Shown: piece by piece, positions 1-64,000 of the stretch
How positions within the stretch are numbered: position 1 is the first letter of the stretch
Layout: each line of letters starts with the position of its first letter
Assembly (NCBI GenBank): GCA_021740845.1
Contig: JAIOYZ010000019.1
Location: 8,828 to 72,827 of the forward strand
DNA length: 64,000 nt
Origin: Bacteroidia bacterium
GTDB lineage: Bacteria > Bacteroidota > Bacteroidia > UKL13-3
Direction: 5' to 3'
The notes under the pieces: model-generated
What the model was told of the DNA's origin: nothing
The model's database searches: none
The model's input: only the letters and a program-made list of their open reading frames with translations
Made by a program: the position numbers and the translations under genes

Positions 1-2191
1 TACCAAAAGAATTTCCGTTTACTTTTATTTCACCCTCTGTTACCATCCCAATTTTTTCAAAAGGCATTTCGGTTTGAACCAAAAGGGCTTCGAAATTTTC
101 AATTTGATTTGCTGCTACAGAAACAACTACCCTACCTTGTGCCTCACCAAATAAGAACGCATCTACACGCAAAGCTTTTGCTTTTTCTGAGTCGATATCA
201 AATGAAAGATTATTAGGCATTGCACTTTCTAATAAACAGGTCATCAAACCACCTTCACTTATATCATGGGCGCTTTGGATCAAACCAGAACCTATTGCTT
301 TTAATACTGTTTGGTGCAACAAATGCTCTTCATCTAAATTAAAATAAGGTGCTGGAGATTGTGCTACTTTTCTAAAATGCGAAAGATAATGTGAGCAACC
401 TAAATCGTTTCTAGATTCACCCATTAGGTAAATAGCATCACCTGCATTTTTAAAATTTAATGTCATATGCTTTTGACCAGCATCCAATAAACCCACCATA
501 CCAATAGTTGGCGTAGGGAAAACTGCATTCTCATCACTGCTTTGGTTATAGAAACTTACATTACCACCTGTAACTGGAGTATCAAATTTCTTACACGCTT
601 CACCCAAACCTTTTATGGCATGTACAAATTGGTAATAAACCTCAGGGTTGTATGGATTACCAAAGTTCAAACAATTGGTTATAGCAGCAGGTTGAGCACC
701 AGAACAAACTAAATTTCTAGCCGCTTCTGAAACCGCAATTTGCCCACCCACAAAAGGGTTGGCATATACATAACGGCTATTGCAATCCACCGTCATGGCA
801 ATTGATTTATCGGTACCTTTTACCTTTACCACAGCAGCATCACTTGGTGCATTTGTAGTTTGGTTAATAGTACCTACCATGCTATCGTATTGGTTATAAA
901 CCCAACGTTTGCTAGCAATATTTGGATGACCCATTAAGTATTTGGCAATTGCTGGAGCCTCAGCCCAAGTGCAATCTTCTACTTGGTTCAAACCGAATTT
1001 TTCTATTTCTTTAAAATATTTAGGCTCAGAATATTCTCTGTGGTAAACAGGAGCACCGCCGCCCAATACCAAACTTTCGCCTGGAATATCTGCACGCAAC
1101 TCGCCGTTCATAAAATATTTAACTCGAGCAGTATCTGTAACCACACCAATTATGGCGTAGGTTAAATCCCATTTCTTGAAAATGGCTTCCACTTCTTCTT
1201 CATGGCCTTTCTTAACAATTACCAACATTCTCTCCTGACTTTCGGAAAGCAATATTTCCCAATCTTTCATTCCAGCCTGACGCATAGGAACCTTATCCAA
1301 CCACACATCCATGCCTGTTCCGCTCTTGGCACTCATTTCACTAGTTGAGCAAGTAATACCTGCTGCACCCATGTCTTGCATGCCAACAACTGCATCGGTT
1401 TGCTCTAGTAATTCAAGACTAGCTTCTAGAATTAATTTCTCCCAGAATGGATCGCCAACTTGCACTGAAGGTAAGTCTTTTGCTGAGTCTTCGGTAATGT
1501 CTTTAGAGGCAAAAGCGGCACCGTGAATTCCGTCTTTACCAGTGGCTGAACCAAAAATATAAACTGGATTACCCAAGCCTTCTGAAATAGCAGAAACAGT
1601 TTTGCCTACCTTAGCAATACCTACACTCATGGCATTTACCAAAGGGTTTATCTGATAGCAATCATCAAAATAAACTTCACCTCCTACTGTTGGAATTCCA
1701 AAAGCATTTCCATAATTGCCAATTCCTTTAACCACACCGCGCACCAACCATTTGGTACGTTCGTTTTCTATGTTTCCAAAACGAAGTGAGTTTAATTGAG
1801 CAATTGGTCGCGCACCCATAGAAAAGATATCGCGGTTAATGCCGCCAACACCGGTAGCTGCACCTTGGTAAGGTTCTATAGCACTTGGGTGGTTGTGAGA
1901 TTCAATTTTAAAACAACAAGCCAAACCATCGCCAATATCAATTAAGCCGGCATTTTCTTCACCAGCTTTGGCCAACATCTTCTCCCCTTCTTTGGGTAAA
2001 GTTTTTAGCCAAACTATAGAATTTTTATACGAACAATGCTCGCTCCACATTACAGAATACACGCTCATTTCGGTAAAAGTTGGGGTACGACCCAAAATTT
2101 CCTTTATTTTTTCAAATTCGTCTTCGCGTAATCCTAGTTGTTTCGCTTGCTCTACGGTGGCCAAAATGCCTATGGGTTGTGACTGACTCAT
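1..2191 (-). CDS. purL: Phosphoribosylformylglycinamidine synthase subunit PurL (FGAM synthase II). The 3' end runs off the left edge of the window.
   Basis: Minus-strand ATG at 2191..2189. My translation begins MSQSQPIGILATVEQAKQLGL...TEMSVYSVMWSEHCSYKNS and continues with AIR-synthase-like PurL motifs (GVGGINRD, GGEVYFDDCYQINPLVNAMSVG). The ORF is open to position 1. It is absent from the ORF track only because no stop lies inside the window. Confidence 0.85.
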   Translation of the reverse strand, partial: MSQSQPIGILATVEQAKQLGLREDEFEKIKEILGRTPTFTEMSVYSVMWSEHCSYKNSIVWLKTLPKEGEKMLAKAGEENAGLIDIGDGLACCFKIESHNHPSAIEPYQGAATGVGGINRDIFSMGARPIAQLNSLRFGNIENERTKWLVRGVVKGIGNYGNAFGIPTVGGEVYFDDCYQINPLVNAMSVGIAKVGKTVSAISEGLGNPVYIFGSATGKDGIHGAAFASKDITEDSAKDLPSVQVGDPFWEKLILEASLELLEQTDAVVGMQDMGAAGITCSTSEMSAKSGTGMDVWLDKVPMRQAGMKDWEILLSESQERMLVIVKKGHEEEVEAIFKKWDLTYAIIGVVTDTARVKYFMNGELRADIPGESLVLGGGAPVYHREYSEPKYFKEIEKFGLNQVEDCTWAEAPAIAKYLMGHPNIASKRWVYNQYDSMVGTINQTTNAPSDAAVVKVKGTDKSIAMTVDCNSRYVYANPFVGGQIAVSEAARNLVCSGAQPAAITNCLNFGNPYNPEVYYQFVHAIKGLGEACKKFDTPVTGGNVSFYNQSSDENAVFPTPTIGMVGLLDAGQKHMTLNFKNAGDAIYLMGESRNDLGCSHYLSHFRKVAQSPAPYFNLDEEHLLHQTVLKAIGSGLIQSAHDISEGGLMTCLLESAMPNNLSFDIDSEKAKALRVDAFLFGEAQGRVVVSVAANQIENFEALLVQTEMPFEKIGMVTEGEIKVNGNSFG

Positions 2192-2300
2192 GGTAATTTT
2201 TAGAAAGCGCAAATTTGCGCATTTGTTAGGGGAAAGCCAAAATTTGGGGAGAAATAAATGGAGCTGAATTCAAAATAAAATGGAAAGTTTGGCAAGCCCT

Positions 2301-3995
2301 TTAAACAAAGAGTTTCCAATATGATTTCACCTTAAGCAATAGCAAATGAACCTTTGCTTCCTGCTCGCCTTTTAGTTGATAAGCATCCAAAACTTGGACT
2401 AACTCTTTTTCAGATAATTTTTCAAAAGCACCCAAAGCATCTAGCATAACTAATAAGCGGTTCAAAAAACTGTCTGAACCCAATTTCCTTTTAGTGAATT
2501 TTTTGAATTTTATCTGAGCTGAGTTTAAAGCCAATAATCTGTTGCCATTAAAATTTTTAGCTACGTGATTACTAATTTTATCGGAGATAGGAAGCAAAGG
2601 AATAAAGGATTTTGTATTGCCTTCTGCCTGCCAATAAATATCTGCATCAGCCAGTTTTACCAAGGTTTTGGCAGGAGTTCTATAGCCTTTTTCAGTTATC
2701 ATTTTCTCCATTTCCAATTCTGCCAATTTTGCTAATTTATCATTCATAGGTCTGAACCTAAGCTTATAATAAAACCAGAAGGCACCAGATTTTATTCCAT
2801 CGGAATTCCCTTTACCAATTTGATAAGTATCAACTGTAAATTGTTGAATTTGAAAACGGGAACGGTATAATCTTATTAATTGAGCAATAACCAAATTAGA
2901 CTCACCACCACGGTATGGAGGCAAAACATTTACCCCAAAAGCTGCTTGAAATCCAAGTAACCAACAACCACCATAAGCCATTGGCAAACCGTTTTTGAAA
3001 AGCAAATAACCCACATAAGATTGAAGTGAAAATTTTTGTTCGGGAATCATGTAAAACAAGGCAATGGAAATTCCTTTGCCCATATCAAACAACTCTGTTT
3101 CGGGAATTTGTGCGTATGTAAACGTATCTGTCTCACGCATTAAGGAAGCCATAGAACCTCTGGCCAAACGAACCAAATGCGCTTGTTGCTCCAAGCTTAA
3201 TTTAATTTGCTTAGGTTTTCCTAGCTCCCAAACCTCTTCTAAAGTGCTTTTCTTTTGAATTCCTTTATCATGAATATAAACTGAACTTTGGTTCAACCTG
3301 CCCAAACTTAAACCCAATAATTTTTCATCTAAACTAAATTGTGTAAACAATTGAAAACCCGCAAATAGATTTTCGCGGTAGGATATAGAACCTGTCATTT
3401 GCATGCAAGCCTGAATATAATAATCGAGCTGTTTTTGAGAATCTTTTATTCCTGGCAAATAGCGTTTTTGCCATTTAGAAAAATATCCCGCATCGCCAGG
3501 CATGAGCTCTTGTTCCACATCACTGAGAGTATAAGTTAGCTTAGCTACCAAATCAGAATTTTCGCCATCTACACCAGAAAGTTCAATGGTTTTTAGGTCT
3601 TCTTGCAACAAATATTGGTTCAACAATAACCCAAATTGGCCACAGATAAGAGAGCCGGTAATTCCAGAATTATAGAATGCGTTTTCATCTTTAGCAACTT
3701 TATTTTTTACGGTTTGAACCAAAAGTTGCATGACTTGATTTGCCAAATCATAAACCTTATTTGATGCTGGATATGCCATTGAGAATAGCAAAGCCTCATG
3801 TAATTGGATGATTTGCTTTTCGATTTGAGGAAAATGAATCAACAGATTTGCTAAAGCCTTTTCCGTTCTTTGAATGGCATCTTTTTCAAATAACCTTTGA
3901 TTTTGAATAAAAGTAGAAAACGAATCGCTTTCTAATTGGGTGCTTAAATTGGTCATGGTAAGTTTTACATAGCCAGCAGAATTGCCTAGGGCCAA
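2301..3995 (-). CDS. Hypothetical protein (564 aa), no recognisable family.
   Basis: Long uninterrupted ORF tightly packed between purL and the E1 dehydrogenase. No signal peptide and no motif I can name. Confidence 0.5.
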   Translation of the reverse strand: MALGNSAGYVKLTMTNLSTQLESDSFSTFIQNQRLFEKDAIQRTEKALANLLIHFPQIEKQIIQLHEALLFSMAYPASNKVYDLANQVMQLLVQTVKNKVAKDENAFYNSGITGSLICGQFGLLLNQYLLQEDLKTIELSGVDGENSDLVAKLTYTLSDVEQELMPGDAGYFSKWQKRYLPGIKDSQKQLDYYIQACMQMTGSISYRENLFAGFQLFTQFSLDEKLLGLSLGRLNQSSVYIHDKGIQKKSTLEEVWELGKPKQIKLSLEQQAHLVRLARGSMASLMRETDTFTYAQIPETELFDMGKGISIALFYMIPEQKFSLQSYVGYLLFKNGLPMAYGGCWLLGFQAAFGVNVLPPYRGGESNLVIAQLIRLYRSRFQIQQFTVDTYQIGKGNSDGIKSGAFWFYYKLRFRPMNDKLAKLAELEMEKMITEKGYRTPAKTLVKLADADIYWQAEGNTKSFIPLLPISDKISNHVAKNFNGNRLLALNSAQIKFKKFTKRKLGSDSFLNRLLVMLDALGAFEKLSEKELVQVLDAYQLKGEQEAKVHLLLLKVKSYWKLFV

Positions 3996-4157
3996 AGTAA
4001 AAAATTAAGTTCAATTTATTTATGACCTTAACACCAAAGATGAAAATAATAATTTGCCTCAAATAATGAATCCAGAAAATGGAATAATTAGGGCAATTAG
4101 TTAAAGGCAGATTCCTTTGAAAAATGTTTTTGGTTCAAACCGAATTTTAAAAAAAAC

Positions 4158-16402: not shown

Positions 16403-16822
16403 ATGATTCAATTGAACAAAAGTAAATTTGAAACCTTATTGCAAATCCGCCCCGACGATATAGACATGAACCAACATGTGCATAGCAGTAAGTACATGGA
16501 CTATGTTTTAGCTGCTCGTTTCGACCAAATGGAGCGCTGTTATAAAATGCCCATGAGTGAATTTATGGCACATGGATTTGGCTGGGTTATTAGAAATACC
16601 TTTATGGAATTTAAACGCCCTTTAATTTTAGGTGATGCCATTTTGGTTCAAACCTATATTGATGAAATGCAAAAAGACGGAGTAAAAGTGCATTTCGAAA
16701 TTATTAAAACCAAAAACAATAAGGTAGCTTGCTCGGGATATTTTAATTATACCATGATTGATATGAAATCCGGTAGAGCAGCCGAAATTCCTGAGTGGAT
16801 TGCTCTTCGGTATTCTATTTAA
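16403..16822 (+). CDS. Acyl-CoA thioesterase, hotdog fold (YbgC/4-HBT-like).
   Basis: 139 aa, thioesterase-superfamily layout (IRPDDIDMNQHVHSSKYMDYVLAARF). Confidence 0.7.
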   Translation: MIQLNKSKFETLLQIRPDDIDMNQHVHSSKYMDYVLAARFDQMERCYKMPMSEFMAHGFGWVIRNTFMEFKRPLILGDAILVQTYIDEMQKDGVKVHFEIIKTKNNKVACSGYFNYTMIDMKSGRAAEIPEWIALRYSI

Positions 16823-16849
16823 TTTTGGTTCGAACCAAACCCATAAAAA

Positions 16850-17320: not shown

Positions 17321-17390
17321 GTTTATTAGTAAATAAAAAAAACATCGGTTTGAACCAAAACAAAGTTGCAGGAAAATACTTTTTGATAAA

Positions 17391-18851: not shown

Positions 18852-18919
18852 TTTAGCTATTTATTTTTAGTCAATTCAAAAAATCTTCTTGCACAATCTT
18901 CTAGTATAATTAGATTTGC

Positions 18920-19125
18920 CATGCTTTAGGTTGAAGTGTGTGAAAGAGAAATTTTTTACCATTTCATTAAAAGGGAACCAAGTGTAAATCTTGGACAGTA
19001 CCCGCTGCTGTAAGCACCGAATGGTTGTTACCATTCATTTCTTATCTCCTACAACGTCACTTTCTACTTAAATGTAGATGGGAAGACAAAGATAAGAAGG
19101 TGTAAGTCAGAAGACCTGCCAAAGT
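18920..19125 (+). ncRNA. Cobalamin (AdoCbl) riboswitch in the 5' leader of the btuB-like receptor gene.
   Basis: Conserved core AAAGGGAACCAAGTGTAAATCTTGGACAGTACCCGCTGCTGTAAGC (18957-19005) and B12 box GTAAGTCAGAAGACCTGCC (19092-19110). It is directly upstream of a TonB-dependent receptor, the canonical genomic context. Confidence 0.8.
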
Positions 19126-19172: not shown

Positions 19173-21197
19173 TTGCACATTGCATTATTTGCACCTCTAT
19201 TCTTTTGCCCGTGCCTCAAATTTTATGAATTGAGACAGTTAGTTTTGGGTATGTTTTTTCTTGTTTTGGGCAATAGTATATTGCTTAAAGACTCGCATGC
19301 GCAAACTAAATCAGCAATTAAAATTGGATCAAACCAAATTGACAGCAGCAAAACATTAGCGCCTTTACAAATAAATGGAATAAGGTATCCGCATTTTTTT
19401 ACGGGCTCCAAATTTTCACTGCTTGATAGCAATTCTATGGCCTTGTACCAGCAACAAAACCTATCAGATTTATTGATGAACCAAAGCATGATTTTTATTA
19501 AATCGTATGGAGGAGGAATGTTGGCGAGCCCTGGTTTTAGAGGAGGAAATGCCAACCACACTGCAGTATTGTGGAATGGTTTCAATTTACAAAGTCCTAT
19601 GAATGGCCAAGTAGATTTGGCAACTATTCCCAGTTTTCTAATTGAAGGTGTGGCTATTCAATATGGTAGTCCTGCAGCCTTATTTGGCACAGGAAATATT
19701 GGAGGAGCAGTGCATTTGTTATCGGATGAAACAAAAGAAAAAGGTTTTGTTACCAAGTTATTATTGGGCACAGGAAGCAATGCTGCGTATACAGGAGGGG
19801 CAAAAATTTTCTTGACCCAAAAGAAATTTAGGATGCAACAAAAAGTTTACTGGCAACAAGCAGAAAACAACTATGCCTACAAAGCATTTGACCAATTGCA
19901 ACCTCAGGCAGGAAATACTGTTTCGGCCAAAGATTTGCAAAAGCTTAAAATGCAAAACGCTGCGCTATCAACCGTAGCTTGGGTTCAAGGCTATCAATAT
20001 GTATTCGGTTTGAACCAAAATATTGGGTTAAATACATGGGTTCAGAAAAATGAAAGAGAATTGCCAGTACCGCTACATGGAAGCAATACGCATGCAAAAC
20101 AAAGCGATGTAACAAATAAAATTTTGATGGACTATCACTTAAAAAAATCTATTTATGAAATGCAGGCCAGATATGGTTATTTCTATGATATGGTGGAATA
20201 CCAAGATGATAATTCTGAAATTAGTAAAAGTGTTTCTCATAAACATACAGCCTATTTAGATAATTTTATTTACCAAGGAAATCATCATTTGCAAATGAGT
20301 GGAATGATGCAAGCAACACAAGCCAATTTAAATACTGTTGCCAATACCTGGAACCAGAAATTAATTGCTGTTTACGCTACCTATAAACGTTCACATTTCG
20401 AGAAATTATTTCAGCACCAAATATCTTTACGACAAGAGTGGGTGAATGGAAAACCTATTCCTTTAATGCCATCTTATGGATTCAATATCCATATTCATAA
20501 AAGCACAAGTGTTTATGGAAATGTTGCTAGAAGTTATAGGTTACCAACTTTTAATGATTTGTACTGGCCAGAAATGGGCAATCCTAATTTGGAAGCTGAA
20601 CATGGATGGAATGAAGAAATAACGCTCGCCAACTATATTTCTGTAAAAGGCGTTTTGGTTCAAACCGCCCTTACTGTTTTTAACAAAACCATACAAGATT
20701 GGATTTTATGGGTGCCAAAAGGCGGCAATTTAAGTACACCCATGAATGTTTACCAAGTTTGGAGCAGAGGTGTGGAATTGGACTGGAAAATGCAGAAAAC
20801 AAATGGCAACTTATTGCTAAAATTTGGAGGCCTACATGATTATACTTTAGCAAGTCCAGAGGCTAGCCATTTGGTGCAAGATGAATCTATTGGAAAGCAA
20901 TTAATATATACTCCAAAAATAAAGAACCAATTGCAAGTAACTGGCATTTATAAGAAAACTAGTTTGGCCTATTTCTTTCATTATATAGGAACTCGATATG
21001 TTAGCTCCGACCATAGTAATTGGCTGGATCCATATACGTTTAGCACCTTATCTGTTTCGCATGCATTTGCAGTTAAGAAAAAACAAGGTACAGTTCAATT
21101 TTTACTCAATAATTTATTTAACCAAACGTATCAAATTATGGTGAATAGACCTATGCCTTTAATTCAATATCAAATCAATTTAAACTTAACTATCTAA
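19173..21197 (+). CDS. btuB: TonB-dependent outer-membrane receptor, BtuB-like (vitamin B12 transporter), riboswitch-controlled.
   Basis: Plug domain (IFIKSYGGGMLASPGFRGGNANHTAVLWNGFNLQSPMNG...GVAIQYGSPAALFGTGNIGGAVHL) and a ~600-aa barrel, with the cobalamin riboswitch upstream. The true start is probably the internal MFFLVLGNSILLKDSHAQ signal peptide (~19251). Confidence 0.85.
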   Translation: MHIALFAPLFFCPCLKFYELRQLVLGMFFLVLGNSILLKDSHAQTKSAIKIGSNQIDSSKTLAPLQINGIRYPHFFTGSKFSLLDSNSMALYQQQNLSDLLMNQSMIFIKSYGGGMLASPGFRGGNANHTAVLWNGFNLQSPMNGQVDLATIPSFLIEGVAIQYGSPAALFGTGNIGGAVHLLSDETKEKGFVTKLLLGTGSNAAYTGGAKIFLTQKKFRMQQKVYWQQAENNYAYKAFDQLQPQAGNTVSAKDLQKLKMQNAALSTVAWVQGYQYVFGLNQNIGLNTWVQKNERELPVPLHGSNTHAKQSDVTNKILMDYHLKKSIYEMQARYGYFYDMVEYQDDNSEISKSVSHKHTAYLDNFIYQGNHHLQMSGMMQATQANLNTVANTWNQKLIAVYATYKRSHFEKLFQHQISLRQEWVNGKPIPLMPSYGFNIHIHKSTSVYGNVARSYRLPTFNDLYWPEMGNPNLEAEHGWNEEITLANYISVKGVLVQTALTVFNKTIQDWILWVPKGGNLSTPMNVYQVWSRGVELDWKMQKTNGNLLLKFGGLHDYTLASPEASHLVQDESIGKQLIYTPKIKNQLQVTGIYKKTSLAYFFHYIGTRYVSSDHSNWLDPYTFSTLSVSHAFAVKKKQGTVQFLLNNLFNQTYQIMVNRPMPLIQYQINLNLTI

Positions 21198-24649: not shown

Positions 24650-24764
24650 AAAATAAAGCTATAAACAAGGTAAATATAGGTAATTTGATTCAAGGTAATT
24701 TTTTTAGGTTTGAACCAAAAGAGGAGGAAGTAACTAGTGAAGGAACGAAAACATATTTTGGCGA

Positions 24765-31598: not shown

Positions 31599-31690
31599 AA
31601 ATGTATTCTATAAAAATCAAAAATACATTTTCTTACTTAAAGCAATAGAATTATCTCAAAGCCTTTTCGGTTTGAACCAATTTCATCAGT

Positions 31691-36150: not shown

Positions 36151-36392
36151 TATACGTTTTATCTATTTATATAAAACTTTAAATGGAAGAGGAAAAAAAT
36201 CAATCTAAAATACTTTAAAGGCCTTTTGGTTCAAACCGAAACCTGCAAAAGCATTGTTGAATTTGGGGACAAGCGGTGGATAAGCCCCTTGAAAGACAAG
36301 GCGATTTGTTATTAAACCAACAATAATTCAGCACTTTAGCTATTAATCCAAATATTAGTTATACTTTTGCGCCTCAATTTTAATAAAGTACT

Positions 36393-38395: not shown

Positions 38396-38525
38396 CATTT
38401 CGGTTTGAACCAAGCTTATTTTTAAGTTAGAAGAAAGGAATAAAAATTAAACCCGGCCTATAAAGTTATGGGTTCATTTTTTGTTTTTTTCGGTTTGAAC
38501 CAAGCCTGTTTTTTAGTAAAAAAAA
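38396..38525. repeat. Tandem duplication of a ~45-80 bp unit that begins with the abundant TTCGGTTTGAACCAAGC motif.
   Basis: 38398-38445 (TTTCGGTTTGAACCAAGCTTATTTTTAAGTTAGAAGAAAGGAATAAAAA) and 38489-38536 (TTTCGGTTTGAACCAAGCCTGTTTTTTAGTAAAAAAAAATAGAAAAAAG) are about 75% identical. Confidence 0.55.
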
Positions 38526-40393: not shown

Positions 40394-41914
40394 CTATTTT
40401 ATAGCAGCTCTAAATTCAGGAGAATTTAGAAACCAGAAATACCATTTTACGATTGTCCCATCAGGGCGTTTACATTTAACTAGAACAGGTACTAACTTGG
40501 CTTTCTCTTCCTTAAATTTTTGTCGATTCTGATAGTTTTCATCATATCTCTCTAAGGAATGAATGCTGCTATTTTCTTTGTTCAACATATAAAATTGAGC
40601 GCCCTCATCGGTTAAAAAATGTGCTTGAAAATTTTTATTAACACCTTTCAGAAAACCAATAAAACCGTAGCCGCCAATAAAATTAAATGAAGGTGGAAAT
40701 TGGCTTTCCAGCCTATAAACTTCTATCAATTTCTTTTTATAACAAACTTTATATTGGATTTCACCTTTCCTATTTTCTCTTATACCTAACTGCTTTAGTT
40801 GTTTTTCATTTAAAAGCAATGCCTTTGATAAATCAGTTTGAAAAATAACAGAATCCATCTTCAAATTCTCTTTGCGCAATAGTTTATTTTTAATTAGCCT
40901 TTTGATTAATTCATTGTAATTTTCATCTGTGTAATTAGCATAATTTTGCCTCACCCAATTAGCCTTATTTATAGGCAATAAATCACAAAATTTTTGAGTT
41001 GGTTTGAACCAAAAAACCATGTCATAATCTGTTCTACCATACATATTAGCTTTTGCCTTAAGCTCAACGCGGACGGGAACTAGCAGCTTTTTGGCTTCGG
41101 TCACAAAATCTTGTGCCACCATTAATGGTGCCTTTAACTCTAGTATATCTGTGGTAACATCTCCTACATTTTGTGAAGTGCTTTTCTTCTCTAAAAAGGT
41201 AATTTCTTTTTCTATAAACATTGGATAAGCCAAAAGGAAAGAATCAGACAAAATTGCCATCATTGAATCGCTAGCCAAAACACTGTTGTTTAAAGTGTAA
41301 CTACCACCATATGATTGAATTTCAGTAAAGTAAAATATTCTATTCTGGCGTTTGCGCAAAACACCTTTATTGGTATACAAACTATCACTCAAATTAGTAT
41401 ACCTCAACTCGCAACCATCGGAATAAATATGCAAGGCTGCCAGCTCCTGGTAGCTTAAAATCAACTCATCAGAATTTTCTTTGGGCGTATAACTTGGGTA
41501 AATAAGAGGCCAAGGTTCTTCTGGATAACCAGGTTTTGGTTCAAACCGAATTCTATTTTGCATTTTTGGCAAAGGAATGAGTGGCTTGGGTAGGGAAGAA
41601 ACTAATGAAATGGATTCTTCAATAACAGAATCTGTTGGATTATTTATTGAAGGTTTTTGCTCTTCTTTTTGCTCAATAGTAGGGCTTTGTTCATCCTTAT
41701 CACGACTTTGAAAATAGGATAAGAAAAACAGTCCAAACAACAAAAATGAAGCTATGATAAGGTACCAATTTCTCGCTCCAAATTTCTTATTAAGTATGGG
41801 TTCGGCTTGAACCAAATCTCTAATTTCTTCTATTGAAATTGCAGGAGAATCCAATTTGGCTTCTTGAAAAAGCTCATCCAAAAAACTATCGCTTAGTTGA
41901 TTCTTATTTTCCAT
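40394..41914 (-). CDS. Putative membrane-anchored anti-sigma factor (cognate to the ECF sigma at 41917..42423), with a large extracytoplasmic domain.
   Basis: It starts 2 nt after the sigma stop. A short cytoplasmic N-terminus is followed by one TM helix (WYLIIASFLLFGLFFLSYF) and a ~430-aa extracytoplasmic part. It is homologous to the extracytoplasmic part of 43359..44831. Confidence 0.55.
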   Translation of the reverse strand: MENKNQLSDSFLDELFQEAKLDSPAISIEEIRDLVQAEPILNKKFGARNWYLIIASFLLFGLFFLSYFQSRDKDEQSPTIEQKEEQKPSINNPTDSVIEESISLVSSLPKPLIPLPKMQNRIRFEPKPGYPEEPWPLIYPSYTPKENSDELILSYQELAALHIYSDGCELRYTNLSDSLYTNKGVLRKRQNRIFYFTEIQSYGGSYTLNNSVLASDSMMAILSDSFLLAYPMFIEKEITFLEKKSTSQNVGDVTTDILELKAPLMVAQDFVTEAKKLLVPVRVELKAKANMYGRTDYDMVFWFKPTQKFCDLLPINKANWVRQNYANYTDENYNELIKRLIKNKLLRKENLKMDSVIFQTDLSKALLLNEKQLKQLGIRENRKGEIQYKVCYKKKLIEVYRLESQFPPSFNFIGGYGFIGFLKGVNKNFQAHFLTDEGAQFYMLNKENSSIHSLERYDENYQNRQKFKEEKAKLVPVLVKCKRPDGTIVKWYFWFLNSPEFRAAIK

Positions 41915-43356: not shown

Positions 43357-43358
43357 AT

Positions 43359-44831
43359 TTAGCGGCGTACAATGCGTTTTGAAATTACATCACCTTTATC
43401 CGATTCAATTACTAGAACATAAACGCCCGGCAATAAATCGCCAATATTGGTTTCAAACTTATGCTTACCTGTCTCGAAGGGTTTTGAAGGCAGTGCTTTT
43501 CTAAGTAAGGTGCCGTTAATTGAATAAATATTAGCCTCAAGGATACGTGCATCGGATAAGTTAAACTCAACAGTAAGTTCGGCATCGGTGGGGTTTGGAA
43601 AGGCGGAAAAATAATTGATGGCACCAGGAGCATTTTGACAAGCTTCAAAATAGGTACATGTTTTTGCATCGCTTTTCTTGGTAACAAAAACCGATTGGTA
43701 TTCTTTGCGCAAATCAGATGAAATTCTTTTGGGTAGAGCATTAAATAATTCTTCGCTTGGTTCAAACCAAATGATAATATCTGCTCGATAACTTTGTGTA
43801 TCTCCCGGAATATTTACATCACCAGATCGAACTAGAATTGGAATGAAAGACGGGATTTTTTCTGCCAGTTTTCTTTCATCTTCCTTTCTTTCATTTTCAG
43901 GTTTTAATGGACTTAAATTATTGTCGATTCGGTATTGTAATTCCTCTTTAGAATATTCATTATCCAGCTCAAACAATCTCCACTTTTGCCCGAGATCATC
44001 TGTAACAAGTCGGTATTTTGGAATTTTCATTACAATACTAGAATTAGCATTGGAATCTGAAGTGTTAGTTGCTTTTAATTTAGGAGGATTCAATGTGTTT
44101 CCTCTTATAAAAACTGAGGAATTAGAATTCAATTTATTAGATGAATTACCAAAACTACTTTTCAGATTTTTACTTCCAAAATTATTAAATCCAGTAGGCC
44201 TAAAATTCATATTAAATTCAGCGGTACTACCCGCTTTATCAAAATAAATAAAGGATGCTTTTGTATCACATATTGGCAATTTTATTTGTAGGTCTTTTAT
44301 AATAATTCCAAAAGCCAGCAATTCTTCATCCGATAATTCTATAATTTTTATGCAATTAAGATTAATTAATCGTCTCTGGGTTATTGAATCTATTTGTTCT
44401 AAAGATGGAGCTTTTTCAATTGAATTTGAAGAATCAAATATTGTCACTAATTTAGGTTCAAAGGAAAAAATTGGAGCTGCACTTTTCCTGTTTACTTTTG
44501 TTTTTCTAATCTCTCCTTTTGGTTCTATTGAAGTTTCCTTTTCTGCTTGAACTTCACTTTCGGTGTTTTGGGGAACAATTCTCTGTTCTGATTTGGTTAA
44601 TAAATCGGAATTCAATTCTGAAACAGGTTTGTTAAAATACAGAACAAGTAGTGTTGAAAATACAGCGATTATACTCATGGCTATTATTATTTTAGTGTTA
44701 AAATAAATCTTAAATTTAGGTGTACGATTTCCAATCAATTCAATTTTTTGTTCCAATAATTCTAAGTCCATTTCGGGCCTTGCATTTCTTGCGGCATCAA
44801 ATAATTTGTTCACCTTTTCATCTGCATTCAT
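43359..44831 (-). CDS. Putative anti-sigma factor paralog carrying a T9SS type-A C-terminal sorting domain.
   Basis: It overlaps the upstream ECF sigma gene by 4 nt (ATGA). N-terminal cytoplasmic segment plus TM helix (IIIAMSIIAVFSTLLVLYF). The middle region is homologous to 40394..41914 (IIIWFEPSEELFNALP vs MVFWFKPTQKFCDLLP). C-terminus FPNPTDAELTVEFNLSDARILEANIYSINGTLL...LLPGVYVLVIESDKG is a T9SS CTD. Confidence 0.55.
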   Translation of the reverse strand: MNADEKVNKLFDAARNARPEMDLELLEQKIELIGNRTPKFKIYFNTKIIIAMSIIAVFSTLLVLYFNKPVSELNSDLLTKSEQRIVPQNTESEVQAEKETSIEPKGEIRKTKVNRKSAAPIFSFEPKLVTIFDSSNSIEKAPSLEQIDSITQRRLINLNCIKIIELSDEELLAFGIIIKDLQIKLPICDTKASFIYFDKAGSTAEFNMNFRPTGFNNFGSKNLKSSFGNSSNKLNSNSSVFIRGNTLNPPKLKATNTSDSNANSSIVMKIPKYRLVTDDLGQKWRLFELDNEYSKEELQYRIDNNLSPLKPENERKEDERKLAEKIPSFIPILVRSGDVNIPGDTQSYRADIIIWFEPSEELFNALPKRISSDLRKEYQSVFVTKKSDAKTCTYFEACQNAPGAINYFSAFPNPTDAELTVEFNLSDARILEANIYSINGTLLRKALPSKPFETGKHKFETNIGDLLPGVYVLVIESDKGDVISKRIVRR

Positions 44832-45379
44832 TTCAAACCTCCCTCATTAATTGTTTGGTTCAAACCGAATTTTTTAAGCCTTGCATTTTCTAATTCCACT
44901 AAATCTTTTAACCTCTGCCTTGCTTGATAAATATCTGTTTTCACCTTACTTAAACTTACCTTTTGTATTTGGGCAATTTCCTCATATTTAAATCCAGCCA
45001 CCTCAAACAAGGTAATTGCTTCTTGTTGCTGAGGCTTTAATTTTCCTAACAAATTAGCTAACTCTCTTCTCTGTAAACTGTCTTCGGAAGTTTCACCTCC
45101 ATCCAAATCTTCCATTTTCTCCCTATTCCAAGGCGCATGAAATTTTTGCCTTCTTACTTTTTTCAGATACAGATTTCTAGCAATGGCAAATAAGAAATAG
45201 GCAAATTGCTCAGGTTGCCTTAGCGTTTCAAATCTCTCAAATGCCTCTAATGTAACTTCACTCACCAGGTCTTTTGCATCCTCCGATTGCCAAATCAACG
45301 ACTGCACATACCTGCTCAACCGCGCATGCAATGGTCGGTATAAGGTCATAAAGCGTATGTTTTTTTCGGTTTGATCCAA
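44828..45379 (-). CDS. RNA polymerase sigma-70 factor, ECF subfamily (second copy).
   Basis: 183 aa. Region 2 and region 4 HTH (ITLFEVAGFKYEEIAQIQKVSLSKVKTDIYQARQRLK). It is a paralog of 41917..42423. Confidence 0.85.
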   Translation of the reverse strand: MDQTEKNIRFMTLYRPLHARLSRYVQSLIWQSEDAKDLVSEVTLEAFERFETLRQPEQFAYFLFAIARNLYLKKVRRQKFHAPWNREKMEDLDGGETSEDSLQRRELANLLGKLKPQQQEAITLFEVAGFKYEEIAQIQKVSLSKVKTDIYQARQRLKDLVELENARLKKFGLNQTINEGGLK

Positions 45380-48153: not shown

Positions 48154-48914
48154 AATTTGTAATTATAGAAGACGAGCCACATGCAAGGAATGAGATAAAA
48201 CGCATTCTAACTAAAATAGAACCCCAACATCAAATAGTGGCAGAACTAGAGTCTGTTTCAGAGGCTATAGAATATCTCGGTTTGAACCAAGATTTTGATT
48301 TGCTGTTCTTGGATATTCAATTGTCTGATGGCTTAAGCTTTGATATTTTTAACGAAATAAAAGTGAATAAGCCTGTGATATTTACAACAGCTTATAACGA
48401 TTATGCCATTAAAGCATTTGAGCTTAACAGCATTGATTATTTATTGAAACCAATAGAGCCCAATCAACTTCAAAAAGCATTAGAAAAATTTAAAGAACTG
48501 AATACTCAAAATAAGCAGAAAACTCCCTTTAATGGCGACGACCTTAGGGCTTTGTTGGGTATAGAGAAAAAGGGCTACAAATCGCGTTTCTTAATTAAAA
48601 TTGGGGATCAGTTTAAATATATTCCCGCTCAAGAAATTGCTTATTTTTATGCCGATAGAAACACAATTTACTTGGTAGATTTGGAACAAAAAAAGTATAT
48701 TGTAGATTATAGGTTGGATCAATTGGAGGAACAATTAAATCCAACAGATTTTTTTAGAGTTACCAGAAGTTATATTGTGCATATTCAATCTATAGTGAAA
48801 GTTCATAAGTATTTCAATAGTCGTTTGTCCTTGGAATTAAAACCCGAAGTTGGCGAACAATTGTTGGTGAGTAGAATAAAAGTAGAATCGTTTTTAGCTT
48901 GGTTAGATAAATAA
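48150..48914 (+). CDS. LytTR-family two-component response regulator.
   Basis: Receiver domain (IIEDEPHAR...LLFLDIQLSDG...AYNDYAIKAFELNSIDYLLKP) plus a C-terminal LytTR DNA-binding domain. Overlaps the kinase gene by 4 nt. Confidence 0.85.
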   Translation: MKFVIIEDEPHARNEIKRILTKIEPQHQIVAELESVSEAIEYLGLNQDFDLLFLDIQLSDGLSFDIFNEIKVNKPVIFTTAYNDYAIKAFELNSIDYLLKPIEPNQLQKALEKFKELNTQNKQKTPFNGDDLRALLGIEKKGYKSRFLIKIGDQFKYIPAQEIAYFYADRNTIYLVDLEQKKYIVDYRLDQLEEQLNPTDFFRVTRSYIVHIQSIVKVHKYFNSRLSLELKPEVGEQLLVSRIKVESFLAWLDK

Positions 48915-51818: not shown

Positions 51819-53210
51819 ATGGAAAAAGGCAAATCATTTTTTGGGAGATCGCTCGCTATAATTCGGCAATCCTTATCTGGGGACGAACAAGACTATACAC
51901 AAGGAAGTATTTCTCGTGCGGTATTTCTATTGGCTATTCCTATGATTTTGGAATTAAGCCTAGAAAGTGTTTTTGCCGTGGTAGATATGTTTTTTGTGGG
52001 AAAATTGGGTCAGAACGCAATTGCTACTGTTGGCTTAACCGAATCTGTGGTGACCATAGTATATTCATTGGCCATAGGTTTAAGCACAGGTGCAACCGCA
52101 ATTGTTGCACGAAGAATTGGAGAAAAAGACCCAAGGTCTGCAGCACATGCTGGAGCCCAATCCATTGTTTTGGCATTAATAGCAACGGTATTTTTTAGCG
52201 CCATAGGCATTTATTATGCCGCAGAAATTTTAAGTCTGATGGGCGCAAGCGAAGAAGTGGTAAGAGATGGAGCCATTTTTACACGCATTATGTTAGGCGG
52301 CAGTTTGGCCATTATTTTATTGTTCTTAATAAACGGAATATTTAGAGGCGCAGGAGATGCAGCTATGGCCATGAAAAGCCTATGGATTGCTAGTATCATT
52401 AATATAGTTTTATGCCCAATTTTTATACATTTCTTTGGGTTAAAAGGAGCTGCCATTGCAACTGTAATAGGAAGAAGTTCGGGTGTTTTATACCAATGTT
52501 ACCATCTGTTTTTAGGCAAAGGAGTAATCAAAATAAGGCGCAGCGATTTTAATTGGGATGTCAGTGGAATGAAATCCATTATTACCATTGCCTGGCCAGC
52601 AACCATGCAATTTATTATTGCCAGTGGTAGCTGGTTAATTTTGGCCAAATTGGTTGCAGAAACAGGAGGCACCACTGCTTCGGCAGGATACCAAATAGCT
52701 ATTAGAAATGTGGTTTTCTTTATTTTACCCGCTTGGGGCTTGAGCAATGCTGCGGCAACTTTGGTAGGACAAAATTTAGGCGCCAATCAAATAGAGAGAG
52801 CGCAGAAAAGTGTTTATCTTACGGCTAAATACAATGCCATATTTATGAGTTTTGTGATGGTATTATTCTTGTTTTTCGCTGATTCAATTATTGCTATTTT
52901 TACACAAGACCCTTCAGTAGCGGCTTATGCGGTTCAAGCCTTACAAATTATTGGTTCAGGCTATATTTTTTATGGTATTGGAATGGTAATGGTGCAAGCC
53001 TTAAATGGGGCTGGAGATACCAAAACCCCTACCCTCATAAATTTCTTTTGCTTTTGGGTATTTCAAATTCCCTTTGCTTATTTTTTAGCAAACGGTTTGA
53101 ACCTAAAATCAACCGGTGCCTTTATTGCTATTCCTGTTGCAGAATCAGCAATTGCTTTGATTGCTTGGTATTATTTCATCAAAGGAAAATGGAAAACTCT
53201 TAAAGTATAA
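51819..53210 (+). CDS. MATE-family multidrug/sodium efflux transporter (NorM-like).
   Basis: 463 aa with 12 TM helices. N-terminal LLAIPMILELSLESVFAVVDMFFVGKLG is typical of MATE transporters. Confidence 0.85.
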   Translation: MEKGKSFFGRSLAIIRQSLSGDEQDYTQGSISRAVFLLAIPMILELSLESVFAVVDMFFVGKLGQNAIATVGLTESVVTIVYSLAIGLSTGATAIVARRIGEKDPRSAAHAGAQSIVLALIATVFFSAIGIYYAAEILSLMGASEEVVRDGAIFTRIMLGGSLAIILLFLINGIFRGAGDAAMAMKSLWIASIINIVLCPIFIHFFGLKGAAIATVIGRSSGVLYQCYHLFLGKGVIKIRRSDFNWDVSGMKSIITIAWPATMQFIIASGSWLILAKLVAETGGTTASAGYQIAIRNVVFFILPAWGLSNAAATLVGQNLGANQIERAQKSVYLTAKYNAIFMSFVMVLFLFFADSIIAIFTQDPSVAAYAVQALQIIGSGYIFYGIGMVMVQALNGAGDTKTPTLINFFCFWVFQIPFAYFLANGLNLKSTGAFIAIPVAESAIALIAWYYFIKGKWKTLKV

Positions 53211-53220: not shown

Positions 53221-53634
53221 ATGGCTTCAAGAAAGTTTTATAAAGTAGAAGATTATTTCGACCATTTAGCACCTTGGATGCAAGAAAGAGCCTATGTGGT
53301 GCGCGAACTTATTTTAGGTTCAAACCGAAATATTGTAGAAAGCATGAAGTACAATGTACCTTTCTATACTTACGAAGGTTACTTGTTTTACTTGGGAATT
53401 TATAAAAAAACACAATTGGTTTTGGCCTTTTGCAATGGCGTGCATGTACCAGATGCGCATGGACTTTTAAGAGCAGATGCCAAGCAAACTCAATTGAGGC
53501 ATTGGCCATTGTTACAAGACCAAGAACCAGATTATGAACTGTTGGCTCAATACATAGAATTAGCCATTGATGTCAACAAGAATTTAAGAACAAGTAGCTT
53601 TGGTATAAAAACAAAAACTATTACTAACAAATAA
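53221..53634 (+). CDS. DUF1801 (YdhG-like) domain protein.
   Basis: 137 aa. The ORF-track start at 53161 overlaps the MATE gene, so the internal MASRKFYKVEDYF start is preferred. Fold assignment is from memory and weak. Confidence 0.5.
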   Translation: MASRKFYKVEDYFDHLAPWMQERAYVVRELILGSNRNIVESMKYNVPFYTYEGYLFYLGIYKKTQLVLAFCNGVHVPDAHGLLRADAKQTQLRHWPLLQDQEPDYELLAQYIELAIDVNKNLRTSSFGIKTKTITNK

Positions 53635-54266: not shown

Positions 54267-55487
54267 ATGATTAAAAAAATACTCTTTCTCGCTTGCTTTA
54301 GTTTTGCATTTAATTTTGCCTTTGCGCAACGTTATTTAAGTCAGGTTTTTGATTCTGTATATGTTGCTGCCGATATTTTATATGGCTTTAACTATAATTA
54401 CAAAGGCGATAGCACCAACTTATATTTAGATATTTACCAACCCAAAGGCGATACGGCTAAAAATAGACCTGTAGTAATTTTAGCGCATGGAGGTTCTTTT
54501 GTGCAAGGCAGCAGAAAGGCCCAAGATATCACCGAAGTTTGCACCCGTTTGGCAAAAATGGGCTATGTAACTGTATCTTTTCAATACCGTTTGGGAGTAG
54601 ATATTTTAAGCGGCAAAACCTTAGAACAAGAATTTAGTCAGGCCGTTTGGCGCGGCACTCAAGATGGCAGAGCAGCAGTACGTTTTATTAGAAAGCAAAT
54701 TGAAAACGGAAATCCTTATAACTTAAATACCAACCAAGTTTATTCTGGTGGCATTTCTGCCGGCGGTGTTTTGGGCCTGCATTTGGCCTTTCTAGACGTG
54801 CCCAGCGAATTATCTCAATTGGCAATTGATACCAATGAAATTGGCGGCATTGAAGGCGAAAGTGGCAATGCGGGTTATAGTTGGAAGGTGAATGGCGTAG
54901 TGAGTTTATGCGGTGCTTTGGCAAATGTAAGTTGGCTCAACAATAATAAAGACATTAGCATTTGCAATATGCACGGAACCATCGATGCAACCGTTCCTTA
55001 TAAAACTGCTTACTTTAAATTCTTTGGTGCAGATGTAGCCATTTTGCAAGGCAGCTTTAGCGTTGATTCGGCAGCCATGCAACAAGGCATAGACACCCGT
55101 TTGCATACTTTTGAAGGTGCCGACCATGTTCCATTTTCTGGCACTACTTCCACACAAATGCAATACATGGATACTACCATTGAGTATGTTGCCCGCTATT
55201 TATACAAACACGTTACAGGTATAGTTCCTAGCGGTTTGAACCAAACGCTTGCTGAAATAAGTTTTCAGGTATTTCCAAATCCTGCACAAGATAAAATCAC
55301 AGTTCAATTTCAAGATTCTAAAACACGCAGCATTGGTATATTTAACATGAGTGGACAAGAAGTAATTTTGGTTCAAACCGAAAAAGAAAAAGAACTAATT
55401 ACCATAGACAGCTTGCCGAAAGGAATGTATTTTATGGAAGTACGCGAAGCAGAAACTGTTTCTAGAAAACTAATTTTAGTAGATTAA
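54267..55487 (+). CDS. Secreted alpha/beta-hydrolase (esterase/lipase) with T9SS type-A C-terminal sorting domain.
   Basis: Signal peptide. HGG oxyanion motif (ILAHGGSFVQGS) and nucleophile elbow GGISAGG. C-terminus VFPNPAQDKITVQFQDSKTRSIGIFNMSGQEVI...LPKGMYFMEV is a T9SS CTD. Confidence 0.75.
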   Translation: MIKKILFLACFSFAFNFAFAQRYLSQVFDSVYVAADILYGFNYNYKGDSTNLYLDIYQPKGDTAKNRPVVILAHGGSFVQGSRKAQDITEVCTRLAKMGYVTVSFQYRLGVDILSGKTLEQEFSQAVWRGTQDGRAAVRFIRKQIENGNPYNLNTNQVYSGGISAGGVLGLHLAFLDVPSELSQLAIDTNEIGGIEGESGNAGYSWKVNGVVSLCGALANVSWLNNNKDISICNMHGTIDATVPYKTAYFKFFGADVAILQGSFSVDSAAMQQGIDTRLHTFEGADHVPFSGTTSTQMQYMDTTIEYVARYLYKHVTGIVPSGLNQTLAEISFQVFPNPAQDKITVQFQDSKTRSIGIFNMSGQEVILVQTEKEKELITIDSLPKGMYFMEVREAETVSRKLILVD

Positions 55488-62582: not shown

Positions 62583-62835
62583 TTTTGGTTCAAACCGAAA
62601 TTTGGTTTGGATGATTGTGGAATGGCTTATTTAAATTAAAACCTAGCTTTTAATCTTTATCCTGGAGCTTAAGCTCCAAAAATAGTCGGACGTAGACAAA
62701 GTCTACGCCCAGCGGGGATATTAATTTTGTGCTCATAAGGAGTGATTTTTGGTTCAAACCGAAATTTAATTGGATGAGTTTGGAAAGGCTTATTTAAATT
62801 AAAACCTGGTTTGCAATTTTTACCCAGGGGGTTAG
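62583..62835. repeat. Two ~90-bp imperfect direct repeats (62583-62670 and 62745-62835), each starting with TTTTGGTTCAAACCGAAATTT, separated by a segment containing a GTAGACaaaGTCTAC hairpin.
   Basis: The units ttggttcaaaccgaaatttggtttggatgattgtggaatggcttatttaaattaaaacctagc and ttggttcaaaccgaaatttaattggatgagtttggaaaggcttatttaaattaaaacctggt align at about 80%. The track ORF 62669..62887(-) across them is composition-driven. Confidence 0.6.
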
Positions 62836-62980
62836 ATCCTTTTTTGGCTGGATGTAATAATAAACTACACCAGCGAAAAACATACATGACTAAATTTTTT
62901 GAAACAGGATTTGCATTCCCATAGTAAAATATAGTTTTAAAGATAAATCATCCCCATCACCTAACTAGATTTTGAACCTT

Positions 62981-64000
62981 TTATTCCCTGCAAACTTTTA
63001 AGGTGCTAAGTTGGTTTTGGGCATTTCTAATGTGGAGGATATAAATACCTGTGCTTAGTGATTGAGTATTTAGCTCACTGCTGCCACTTAGTGCTTCTCC
63101 TTTCATTTGTAATTGGCCGAAGGTATTGTAGAGCTCATAGCTAAAATAATTATTGCTATTGGAGCTTAAAGTAAAGCCTGAACCAAATGGAATAGGGTAT
63201 GCTGTATAAGTTATCTGCTCTTCGCCAAGTTGGGGCTGGTGCAATTGGATTTGAATAGTGGTGGAATAACTAAAGGAGCCATCCTTGTCAACCTGACGAA
63301 GACGATAATACACAAAATCTGTGATGGGTTTTTCTATTCCACTATGGTTGTCCGTAAAGGAATACCTGCTTATACTATTAGAATTTCCAGCGGCTTTTAC
63401 CTTACCTGCATGTTCCCATTCTGCACCTTCATAGGAGCGTTCAACTTCAAACCAAGCAGAGTTTATTTCGGAGGCCGTTTGCCAGTCAAGTTTAATTTGA
63501 TTGCCTTGCTTTTCACCTTCAAAATTTAACCAGGTTACTGGAAGTGTAGCAGTACTAGTATTATAGGCGCCGGTTGTTAAAAAACGGGTAGCATTTGCCC
63601 AACCATTTACTTCCATAATTTTTATCTGGTAAGTAGTAAACGGACTTAGTCCGCTAATGGTTATAACATTTGTATCACCCACATAAACTATTTTGGATCC
63701 ATCTGCCAAGGCTGGAGAAGTGCTGAAATTTTGGGTTGCAGCATAATAAGTATAATTCACAGGATTGCTGGTAATAGCCGCTGTGCCCTGCTTGAGTAAA
63801 ATTATTCTTCCGGTTCCATTGCCGGGTGTTTGAATAGTTAGCCGAAACGAATTGGCATACAAATGCGAAACTGTGGCTGAGGAAGTTTGAACCGAAGGGG
63901 CTTGTATGTTATAAGTATTGCGGGAAACTAGCAAACGCGCCGACATAATGGTGGAAATTGGTGTGTGCTTAACTCCAACTAAGTCTGGTCTTCCATCCTT
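62981..64000 (-). CDS. Secreted protein with FN3-like region and T9SS type-A C-terminal sorting domain. The 5' end probably lies beyond the window.
   Basis: C-terminus ITYTAYPIPFGSGFTLSSNSNNYFSYELYNTFGQLQMKGE...GIYILHIRNAQNQLSTLKV is a T9SS CTD. The frame stays open upstream of the track ATG (63946) to the window edge (...KDGRPDLVGVKHTPISTI-M...). Confidence 0.6.
   Translation of the reverse strand, partial: KDGRPDLVGVKHTPISTIMSARLLVSRNTYNIQAPSVQTSSATVSHLYANSFRLTIQTPGNGTGRIILLKQGTAAITSNPVNYTYYAATQNFSTSPALADGSKIVYVGDTNVITISGLSPFTTYQIKIMEVNGWANATRFLTTGAYNTSTATLPVTWLNFEGEKQGNQIKLDWQTASEINSAWFEVERSYEGAEWEHAGKVKAAGNSNSISRYSFTDNHSGIEKPITDFVYYRLRQVDKDGSFSYSTTIQIQLHQPQLGEEQITYTAYPIPFGSGFTLSSNSNNYFSYELYNTFGQLQMKGEALSGSSELNTQSLSTGIYILHIRNAQNQLSTLKVCRE

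Follow-up and report, generated by a model that had tools for sequence, protein, structure and literature searches.

Sequence-specific DNA uptake is, to our knowledge, firmly established only in the Neisseriaceae and Pasteurellaceae. In this study, a stretch of 64,000 nucleotides (nt) from a Bacteroidia bacterium (GenBank assembly GCA_021740845.1, contig JAIOYZ010000019.1, positions 8,828 to 72,827; the whole stretch is hereafter called the window) has been found to carry a short dispersed word, TTGGTTCAAACCGAA, with the core GGTTCAAACC (complement GGTTTGAACC). We read it, at a probability of roughly 45%, as a self-recognition word resembling a DNA uptake sequence (DUS) and spread by molecular drive.

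The DUS of the Neisseriaceae is an asymmetric word of 10-15 nt, which occurs at about 0.4-1 copies per kb in both orientations, lies in genes and spacers with enrichment in the spacers, is clade-specific, and has dialects one or two bases apart with minor variants beside the main form; all these traits recur here. The DUS is recognised by the minor pilin ComP, whereas for the present word, unrelated in sequence and from another phylum, a type IV pilin receptor is neither known nor expected; its spacer copies do not form inverted terminator pairs, and its uptake bias is a prediction. The uptake signal sequence (USS) of the Pasteurellaceae resembles the present word in its conserved core with AT-rich flanks, in the two types (Hin-type and Apl-type) carried by sister clades, and in its mostly coding copies, which use few tolerated frames and leave certain peptides over-represented. 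Its sequence is unrelated, however, and here the core is quasi-palindromic and the organism uncultured. The highly iterated palindrome HIP1 (GCGATCGC) of cyanobacteria is comparable in density, in having coding and non-coding copies and in its occasional lineage-specific derivative words (PMC4390886). The core of the sister dialect described below is likewise a true palindrome and contains a possible restriction or methylation site, whereas the window word is non-palindromic with asymmetric flanks and differs in phylum and sequence, and no methyltransferase matching it was seen in the DNA sampled. Repetitive extragenic palindromic (REP) sequences, REPINs and miniature inverted-repeat transposable elements (MITEs) are likewise dispersed, imperfectly palindromic and abundant, but they measure at least 20-40 nt, are confined to spacers and are propagated by transposase-like enzymes, whereas the present word has about 15-18 nt and two thirds of its copies lie in genes.

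Abundance and placement of the word

The gene content of the window is that of an ordinary chromosome in a member of the Bacteroidota with type IX secretion (T9SS); it includes purL, metH and genes for an E1 dehydrogenase, a class II aminoacyl-tRNA synthetase (aaRS), a DEAD-box helicase and extracytoplasmic function (ECF) sigma factors. Exact copies of the core GGTTCAAACC number 27, with 14 on the plus and 13 on the minus strand, which corresponds to 0.42 per kb or about one per 2.4 kb. A preliminary description, made by eye from the sequence, had reported at least 24 exact copies, far above what composition would give; all 24 of its coordinates were right, and the copies at 3711 (-), 16645 (+) and 53094 (-) had been missed. 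The excess is equally clear by calculation: 100 dinucleotide-preserving shuffles gave a mean of 0.15 copies and a maximum of 2, and a 5th-order Markov model gave 1.4, an expectation inflated by the motif because the model was trained on the window itself. Under this model the 15-mer TTGGTTCAAACCGAA is expected 0.02 times and observed 13 times. Near-variants are also over-represented, since TGGTTCAAACCG with at most two mismatches occurs 45 times against 4.9 expected. A hundreds-fold excess of a short specific word throughout the genome is a defining trait of uptake sequences. The copies and variants are listed below by coordinates and strand, with the peptide encoded by each coding copy.

71..80, -: exact core, TTTTGGTTCAAACCGAAA, in the purL open reading frame (ORF; 2-2269, -), sense, LVQT
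985..994, +: exact core in the purL ORF, antisense, GLNQ
2749..2758, -: single GGTTCAGACC, a third variant, of which relatives have more, as TTGGTTCAGACCGAA
3711..3720, -: exact core in hypothetical gene 2301-3995 (-), sense, LVQT
4132..4141, +: exact core in spacer, 17 nt 3' of the stop of the E1 dehydrogenase gene 4158-6206 (-)
16645..16654, +: exact core in thioesterase gene 16403-16822 (+), sense, LVQT
16827..16836, no strand: palindromic GGTTCGAACC, the sole sister-dialect copy of the window, in spacer, 5 nt past the stop of 16403-16822
17347..17356, -: exact core in spacer, 27 nt past the stop of a DUF1456 gene
20007..20016, -: exact core in TonB-dependent receptor gene 19173-21197 (+), antisense, GLNQ
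20657..20666, +: exact core in the same receptor gene, sense, LVQT
24707..24716, -: exact core in the spacer between 23402-24649 (-) and 24765-25919 (-)
26502..26511, -: exact core in the class II aaRS (asnS-type) gene, sense, SVQT
29111..29120, +: exact core in BNR/sortilin-like T9SS gene 28869-31598 (-), antisense, GLNQ
31669..31678, -: exact core in spacer, 13 nt past the metH stop
32045..32054, -: decayed ancestral site in metH, TTG GTT AGA ACC GAA (LVRTE)
32641..32650, +: exact core in metH, antisense, GLNQ
36228..36237, +: exact core in the divergent spacer 5' of the DEAD-box helicase gene
38402..38411, -: exact core in the spacer past the DEAD-box helicase gene, in a 64-nt local duplication
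38492..38501, -: exact core in the second copy of the 64-nt duplication
41001..41010, -: exact core in hypothetical 506-aa gene 40394-41914 (-), sense, WFKP
41538..41547, +: exact core in the 506-aa gene, antisense, RFEP
41804..41813, -: one-mismatch copy TTTGGTTCAAGCCGAA in the 506-aa gene
43759..43768, +: exact core in T9SS-tail gene 43359-44831 (-), antisense, WFEP
44857..44866, +: exact core in ECF sigma factor gene 44828-45379 (-), antisense, GLNQ
45368..45377, -: TTGGATCAAACCGAAA, with one mismatch, at the 5' end of the same sigma factor gene
48279..48288, -: exact core in a LytTR response regulator gene, antisense, GLNQ
53094..53103, -: exact core in MatE gene 51819-53210 (+), antisense, GLNL
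53317..53326, +: exact core in a DUF1801 gene, sense, GSNR
55233..55242, -: exact core in esterase gene 54267-55487 (+), antisense, GLNQ; kept in strain L089
55370..55379, +: exact core in the same esterase gene, sense, LVQT; kept in strain L089
58487..58496, -: indel-disrupted copy TTTGGTTCAAAACAAACCGAA
62587..62596, +: exact core in a 1.1-kb gene-free stretch, opening an 89-nt locally duplicated unit
62751..62760, +: exact core opening the second copy of the 89-nt unit

Alignment of the 27 copies gave the asymmetric extended consensus TTTTGGTTCAAACCGAAA. The T at -2 is invariant (27/27), and T at -1, G at +10 and A at +11 occur in 24/27, 23/27 and 22/27 copies, respectively; from about 5 nt outward on each side the base composition is that of the background. 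A repeat search of the window found no longer unit enclosing the copies except two local duplications (62583-62671/62746-62834 and 38387-38450/38477-38540); the pairs 62587/62751 and 38402/38492 lie in these and are therefore not independent. The region 61884-62980 is 1.1 kb without a long ORF, and its two 89-nt units are 74% identical, about 163 nt apart and have the motif at each start. Rfam and tRNA scans of the window showed no RNA family at the word, only cobalamin and SAM (S-adenosylmethionine) riboswitches.

The copies occupy both genes and spacers. Eighteen of the 27 lie in coding sequence, across 15 unrelated genes, 8 in sense and 10 in antisense, and the other 9 lie in spacers, which make up about 8% of the window sequence, so that spacers are enriched about 5-fold; the split of about ten spacer and fourteen ORF copies estimated earlier was close to these figures without being exact. 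Most spacer copies are found 13-70 nt 3' of a stop codon and, relative to the upstream gene, 6 are antisense and 2 sense. Spacer enrichment, occupation of genes as well and the lack of orientation polarity are again traits of an uptake sequence. An intrinsic terminator, which calls for a stable GC-rich hairpin with a U run behind it and aligned with the transcript, was considered and rejected, in line with the preliminary description, as the 20-mer folds as single-stranded DNA at only -2.9 kcal/mol (forward) and -1.1 kcal/mol (reverse) and the spacer copies face either way.

In coding copies two main frames are used, TTG GTT CAA ACC giving LVQT and, on the other strand, GGT TTG AAC CAA giving GLNQ. 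In all, the copies are read as GLNQ (7), LVQT (5), W/RF[KE]P (3), SVQT, GLNL and GSNR. From amino-acid frequencies, LVQT is expected 0.24 times against 5 observed and GLNQ 0.32 times against 7, or about 20 times the expectation. Every LVQT and GLNQ tetrapeptide of the window is encoded by the word, and in distant Bacteroidota these peptides occur at about 0.12 per equivalent proteome; hence it is the word which shapes the proteins and not the reverse. The coding copies use two cheap frames and leave an imprint on the peptides.

These data bear on the suggestion that the copies belong to a miniature mobile element or REP-type repeat, or reflect a conserved peptide or codon-usage effect, which we regard as scarcely credible. 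Two copy pairs do lie in local duplications, of 64 and 89 nt. However, conservation ends at about 18 nt; unrelated genes contain two thirds of the copies, which use three frames and both strands; the encoded tetrapeptides are not found away from the word; and orthologues with the same peptide use other codons. The mobile-element explanation is thus contradicted by the unconserved flanks and the in-gene copies; the earlier exclusion of a MITE and of a conserved protein motif was sound, and the copies have not turned out to be parts of a longer repeat family.

The word extends beyond the window. MetH of the window is identical to proteins in the metagenome-assembled genomes (MAGs) GCA_021739685.1 and GCA_021740965.1 (Bacteroidia bacterium), in a Logan assembly and in a JGI metagenome, so the word has been seen in independent assemblies; a further MAG, GCA_040403785.1, belongs to the CG dialect described below. 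The 7.7 kb past the left window edge hold two further copies with the CA centre and one with CG. Scanning metagenome contigs for the 18-mer gave 120 stretches, each found through one 18-mer match. In 87 of these, of low GC (444 kb), 64 core copies were present in addition to the finding copies, with the same asymmetric flanks, and the 33 high-GC stretches (188 kb), which are chance matches, had zero further core copies. The carriers come from at least 5 metagenome sequencing projects. In the 41 contigs with at least two copies, 66 of 106 copies are in long ORFs and 40 outside, at an ORF coverage of 90%; the ORF copies are 31 sense and 35 antisense, without transcription bias, and the dominant frames are LVQT (19), GLNQ (18) and RFEP (10). 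Among viral contigs (IMG/VR), 66 single 15-mer matches were obtained, none above chance, phages of this host not being identified there. On the DNA sampled, the word is genome-wide in the window MAG as well as in the metagenome contigs related to it.

Polar signals for recombination or segregation, such as Chi or the FtsK-orienting KOPS, were also considered, since signals of the Chi type are short, over-represented, lineage-variable and tolerated in genes (PMC4390886). In the window, however, the two orientations are interleaved over 64 kb (14:13) with no switch point, and GC skew tracks gene direction, also without a switch. With about 15 nt the word has double any known Chi length, and the carrier contigs show no transcription-relative bias. 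The absence of skew contradicts this explanation, which is very improbable, as was already argued from the lack of strand bias.

Dialects and orthologous sites in related lineages

Closer relatives were taken as a graded series of MetH relatives from the protein database, and their contigs, in fragments up to about 23 kb, were compared with the window; the distant comparison set consisted of 80 loci (1.5 Mb). In a neighbour-joining tree of the MetH lineages, the window clade is sister to lineages at 88-91% MetH identity. The closest GTDB species representatives among the matches listed (77-78% MetH identity) have no copy of the word, and the 80 distant loci contain only 3 GGTTCAAACC copies, one per locus, which is the chance level. 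In the 1.5 Mb of distant loci, the family TGGTTC(GA/AA/AG)ACC is not among the commonest central variants. The over-represented k-mers of the distant loci L041, L050, L028, L072, L010 and L009 were tandem or local repeats and were discarded. Separately, two GTDB MAGs titled Janthinobacterium lividum (L025 and L027; 40-42% GC, Bacteroidota-like MetH) have a taxon label that looks wrong, and they carry another dispersed word, ATGCTTCTTTTAYCGGCAAAAAAT, at 13 per 22 kb in both orientations and at positions common to both species; most of its copies sit immediately 5' of where a gene begins, which suggests a promoter or leader element and a different phenomenon.

The sister lineages carry TTGGTTCGAACCGAA, which is one letter off TTGGTTCAAACCGAA and has the same asymmetric flanks. 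A rarer third form, TTGGTTCAGACCGAA (CAGACC), occurs once or twice each in L206, L282, L283, L214 and L215. The family can be written TTGGTTC[GA/AA/AG]ACCGAA, with flanks alike in all forms, and the window lineage is almost purely of the CAA form (27 CA, 1 CG, 1 CAG). The sister core GGTTCGAACC presumably resembles the tRNA T-arm/B-box GGTTCGAAYCC, and it joins GTTC and GAAC, which we take to be the Dnd phosphorothioation consensus. The counts in the relatives, given below, are small though each is far above chance.

L206, 16 kb: GGTTCGAACC 4, GGTTCAAACC 0
L208, 22.7 kb: GGTTCGAACC 4 (0.01 expected), GGTTCAAACC 0
L282, 15 kb: GGTTCGAACC 2, GGTTCAAACC 0
L283, 11 kb: GGTTCGAACC 3, GGTTCAAACC 2 (5 sites against 0.05 expected)
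L214, 13 kb: GGTTCGAACC 1, GGTTCAAACC 1
L215, 17 kb: GGTTCGAACC 1, GGTTCAAACC 0
L216, 15 kb: GGTTCGAACC 1, GGTTCAAACC 0
L210 (86% lineage), 22.7 kb: GGTTCGAACC 0, GGTTCAAACC 1
L212 (84% lineage), 22.7 kb: GGTTCGAACC 0, GGTTCAAACC 0

Among the sampled relatives only L283, with 5 sites in 11 kb, matches the density of the window. The word is clade-specific and has dialects in related lineages. The highest local density in the window itself is found at 40394-45379 (5 exact and 2 one-mismatch copies in 5 kb), a region with two adjacent pairs of an ECF sigma factor and a downstream gene which are not at this place in L208.

The clade limits are relevant to the idea that the copies form a binding-site array for an abundant chromosomal protein (nucleoid-organising, segregation or silencing) whose specificity differs by one base between sisters. 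A quasi-palindromic 16-18-mer would suit a dimeric DNA-binding protein, and the word is genome-wide and orientation-independent. Nevertheless, the site arrays of parS, matS, SlmA and Noc are 10-100 times sparser and conserved over far larger evolutionary distances, whereas relatives at or below 86% MetH identity are essentially without the word. A housekeeping protein would moreover need more than 1000 sites retuned simultaneously, and amino-acid-changing insertions in enzymes are a high price for binding sites. We consider such an array quite unlikely.

The change between dialects has a direction. When the centre is read as CA, the flank pair is (T,G) rather than (C,A) in 20:0 cases in the window and in 29:2 independent metagenome copies. 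As the flanks are asymmetric, random decay, for example by deamination on either strand, would give CA or TG at random with respect to them, and the tie of CA to the flank orientation points to one directed shift. In the window lineage, two orthologous sites have been converted from CG to CA. At 26502, in the aaRS gene, L206 and L208 have GGTTCGAACC, and CGA (Arg) has become CAA (Gln) in the window; at 36228, in a spacer, L208 has TTGGTTCGAACCGAAA, and L131, another species (about 76-84% DNA identity), has TTTTGGTTCAAACCGAAA and so shares the CA form. At the metH site 32045, L206, L208, L214 and L216 have TTG GTT CGA ACC GAA, and the Arg of LVRTE is conserved across the phylum; the window has a synonymous CGA to AGA change which destroyed the old word at a place where the new word would have cost the conserved Arg.

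Losses and gains are seen at other sites too. The indel-disrupted copy at 58487 corresponds to an intact GGTTCGAACC in the L208 orthologue. The CA copies at 20657, 29111 and 32641 face unrelated sequence in the aligned relatives (at 20657 only L210 aligned); that at 32641 occupies a hypervariable MetH tetrapeptide between the conserved KNFV and AR and is new in the window lineage, strain L084 included. The near-identical strains L084 and L089 retain copies. From these comparisons, copies arise and persist by DNA-level point substitution against weak protein constraint, and the word is still in the making in the window lineage, with concerted conversion of orthologous sites. At 31599-31690 the window differs from L084 (2726-3518), in which, as in the CG-dialect relatives, a 223-aa type IX secretion-tail gene stands between metH and the BNR gene; the window is without this gene and has motif 31669 in the 92-nt junction, and L084 (95-97% DNA identity) is without the motif there.

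The directed change also bears on a HIP1-like explanation, according to which the word would be a target of a methyltransferase or other modification, accrued by modification-directed or very-short-patch-type biased repair, or with methylated copies protecting incoming DNA, and CG to CA would follow a change of the enzyme. We hold this to be unlikely. The sister core, perfectly palindromic and centred on a CpG, includes TTCGAA and TCGA, and a G to A change at CpG is what deamination of the methylated cytosine on the other strand should give. TCGA occurs 65 times in the window where a maximal-order Markov model predicts 107 (observed/expected 0.61), a depletion absent from the loci of the relatives. 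Density and coding/non-coding spread are similar, HIP1 having 300-2700 copies per Mb, but all reported HIP extensions preserve the palindrome (PMC4390886), whereas here both dialects have asymmetric flanks, with T at -1 and G at +10. A perfect palindrome with symmetric extensions is not found in our word, which has a CA centre and T/G flanks; only the sister 10-nt core is palindromic. The non-palindromic window word is nevertheless the densest and still gaining copies, random deamination predicts both orientations rather than the observed coupling, TTCGAA is neither depleted nor enriched outside the word, and no DNA methyltransferase was seen among the window genes or in a crude screen of about 0.5 Mb. 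A recent proposal gives HIP1 itself a role as a signal for uptake or transformation, so that this explanation may merge with that of an uptake sequence. A TTCGAA restriction system driving the dialect change was rejected, as TTCGAA is not avoided and only TCGA is mildly depleted. As a separate observation, the TCGA deficit of the window may trace a TCGA-specific restriction system in the lineage.

A possible uptake signal

The uptake-sequence interpretation is favoured because a short asymmetric word at about 0.4-1 per kb, without polarity, with enrichment in spacers, in cheap frames, within clade limits and with dialects one or two bases apart is found. The analogy with DUS, USS and HIP1 drawn in the preliminary description has been strengthened by the one-letter sister dialects, the concerted conversion and the new copies. 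From these sequence facts we infer competence, a sequence-specific receptor and an uptake bias. A DNA-binding component of the natural-transformation machinery would prefer double-stranded DNA bearing the word, and DNA of relatives which happens to carry it would be taken up and recombined more often. Word-creating mutations would then spread and word-destroying ones would be lost, a molecular drive which might go on to about one word per 2.4 kb wherever protein function tolerates it. A one-base shift in receptor preference could retune the whole genome and would explain TTGGTTCGAACCGAA in the sisters versus TTGGTTCAAACCGAA in the window.

The phylum context makes this interpretation plausible. 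Riemerella columbina prefers its own DNA in transformation, although k-mer counting gave no candidate word (PMC7965970). Transformation in Riemerella needs ComEC, DprA, ComF and RecA, together with four proteins without homologues in the classical machineries; among these are phylum-specific proteins, one predicted to lie at the surface and one an outer-membrane protein with CarboxypepD_reg (PMC8459023). It is proposed, still more tentatively than the uptake role itself, that the word may be the first uptake sequence of Bacteroidota, that its receptor may be a surface or outer-membrane protein of a pilus-independent, TonB-linked Riemerella-like machinery, and that a switch of receptor specificity may have changed CGAACC to CAAACC, with CAGACC as a side branch and L283 and L214 as mixed genomes.

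Several points weigh against an uptake function. The spacer copies are single, with no inverted pairs, whereas many Neisseria DUS form such pairs. Copy spacing, computed by hand, looks random and uneven, with one 12.5-kb gap. The sister core GGTTCGAACC, a perfect palindrome containing TTCGAA/TCGA, fits a methyltransferase or restriction site and not a known uptake sequence. In about 0.5 Mb of carrier DNA, a regular-expression pre-screen combined with Pfam yielded only unrelated proteins and neither DprA nor ComEA nor a DNA methyltransferase; this crude screen is too shallow to count either way. Finally, all the results would follow equally from any other sequence-specific drive.

Full-text searches of the literature that could be searched gave no mention of the word or of any uptake sequence in Bacteroidota, and the earlier remark that no named element of this sequence is known in the phylum agrees with them. 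The literature matches listed for the 10-mer were primers or unrelated, and one meganuclease target was a chance overlap. For a dispersed and hyper-abundant word of the recognition type, the phylum and the sequence are new, and the dialects are well resolved.

Neighbouring features and implications

Some further features were noted in the window. Its cobalamin riboswitch (18911-19137, +) lies 5' of a TonB-dependent receptor/DUF4465/DUF5074 operon, and its SAM riboswitch (36029-36141, -) 5' of the homocysteine methyltransferase/metH operon. The C-terminal tail of the DEAD-box helicase contains three tandem 36-nt coding repeats (38040-38150), rich in Arg, Gly and Ser. At 38555-38618, just 5' of an AAA_14/DUF4143 ATPase gene (38630-39802), there is a perfect tandem duplication of the 32-nt unit ATTGACGGAAATTAGTTGAATTCCGTCAGTTG, with an inverted repeat in each unit. 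Another AAA_14/DUF4143 ATPase gene (27641-28822) is flanked by 57-nt direct repeats (27571-27627 and 28813-28869, 75% identical), which may mark a small cassette or a shared regulatory region.

Transformation is known in Bacteroidota, and at least one species favours its own DNA, with no recognition sequence known; the present clade offers a clear candidate word. The one-base difference between sister lineages, together with the mixed genomes, constitutes a natural experiment which indicates where a receptor might be sought, in a clade-specific DNA-binding protein changing with the dialect. The word can also be used as a practical marker, both in binning and to trace gene flow within the group. 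Even if its function should differ, for instance in methylation-linked repair or as the site of a chromosomal binding protein, a 15-nt word has rewritten peptides in the housekeeping enzymes MetH, an aminoacyl-tRNA synthetase and PurL, which shows that a strong drive acts on the DNA of this environmental lineage, of which only metagenomes are known.

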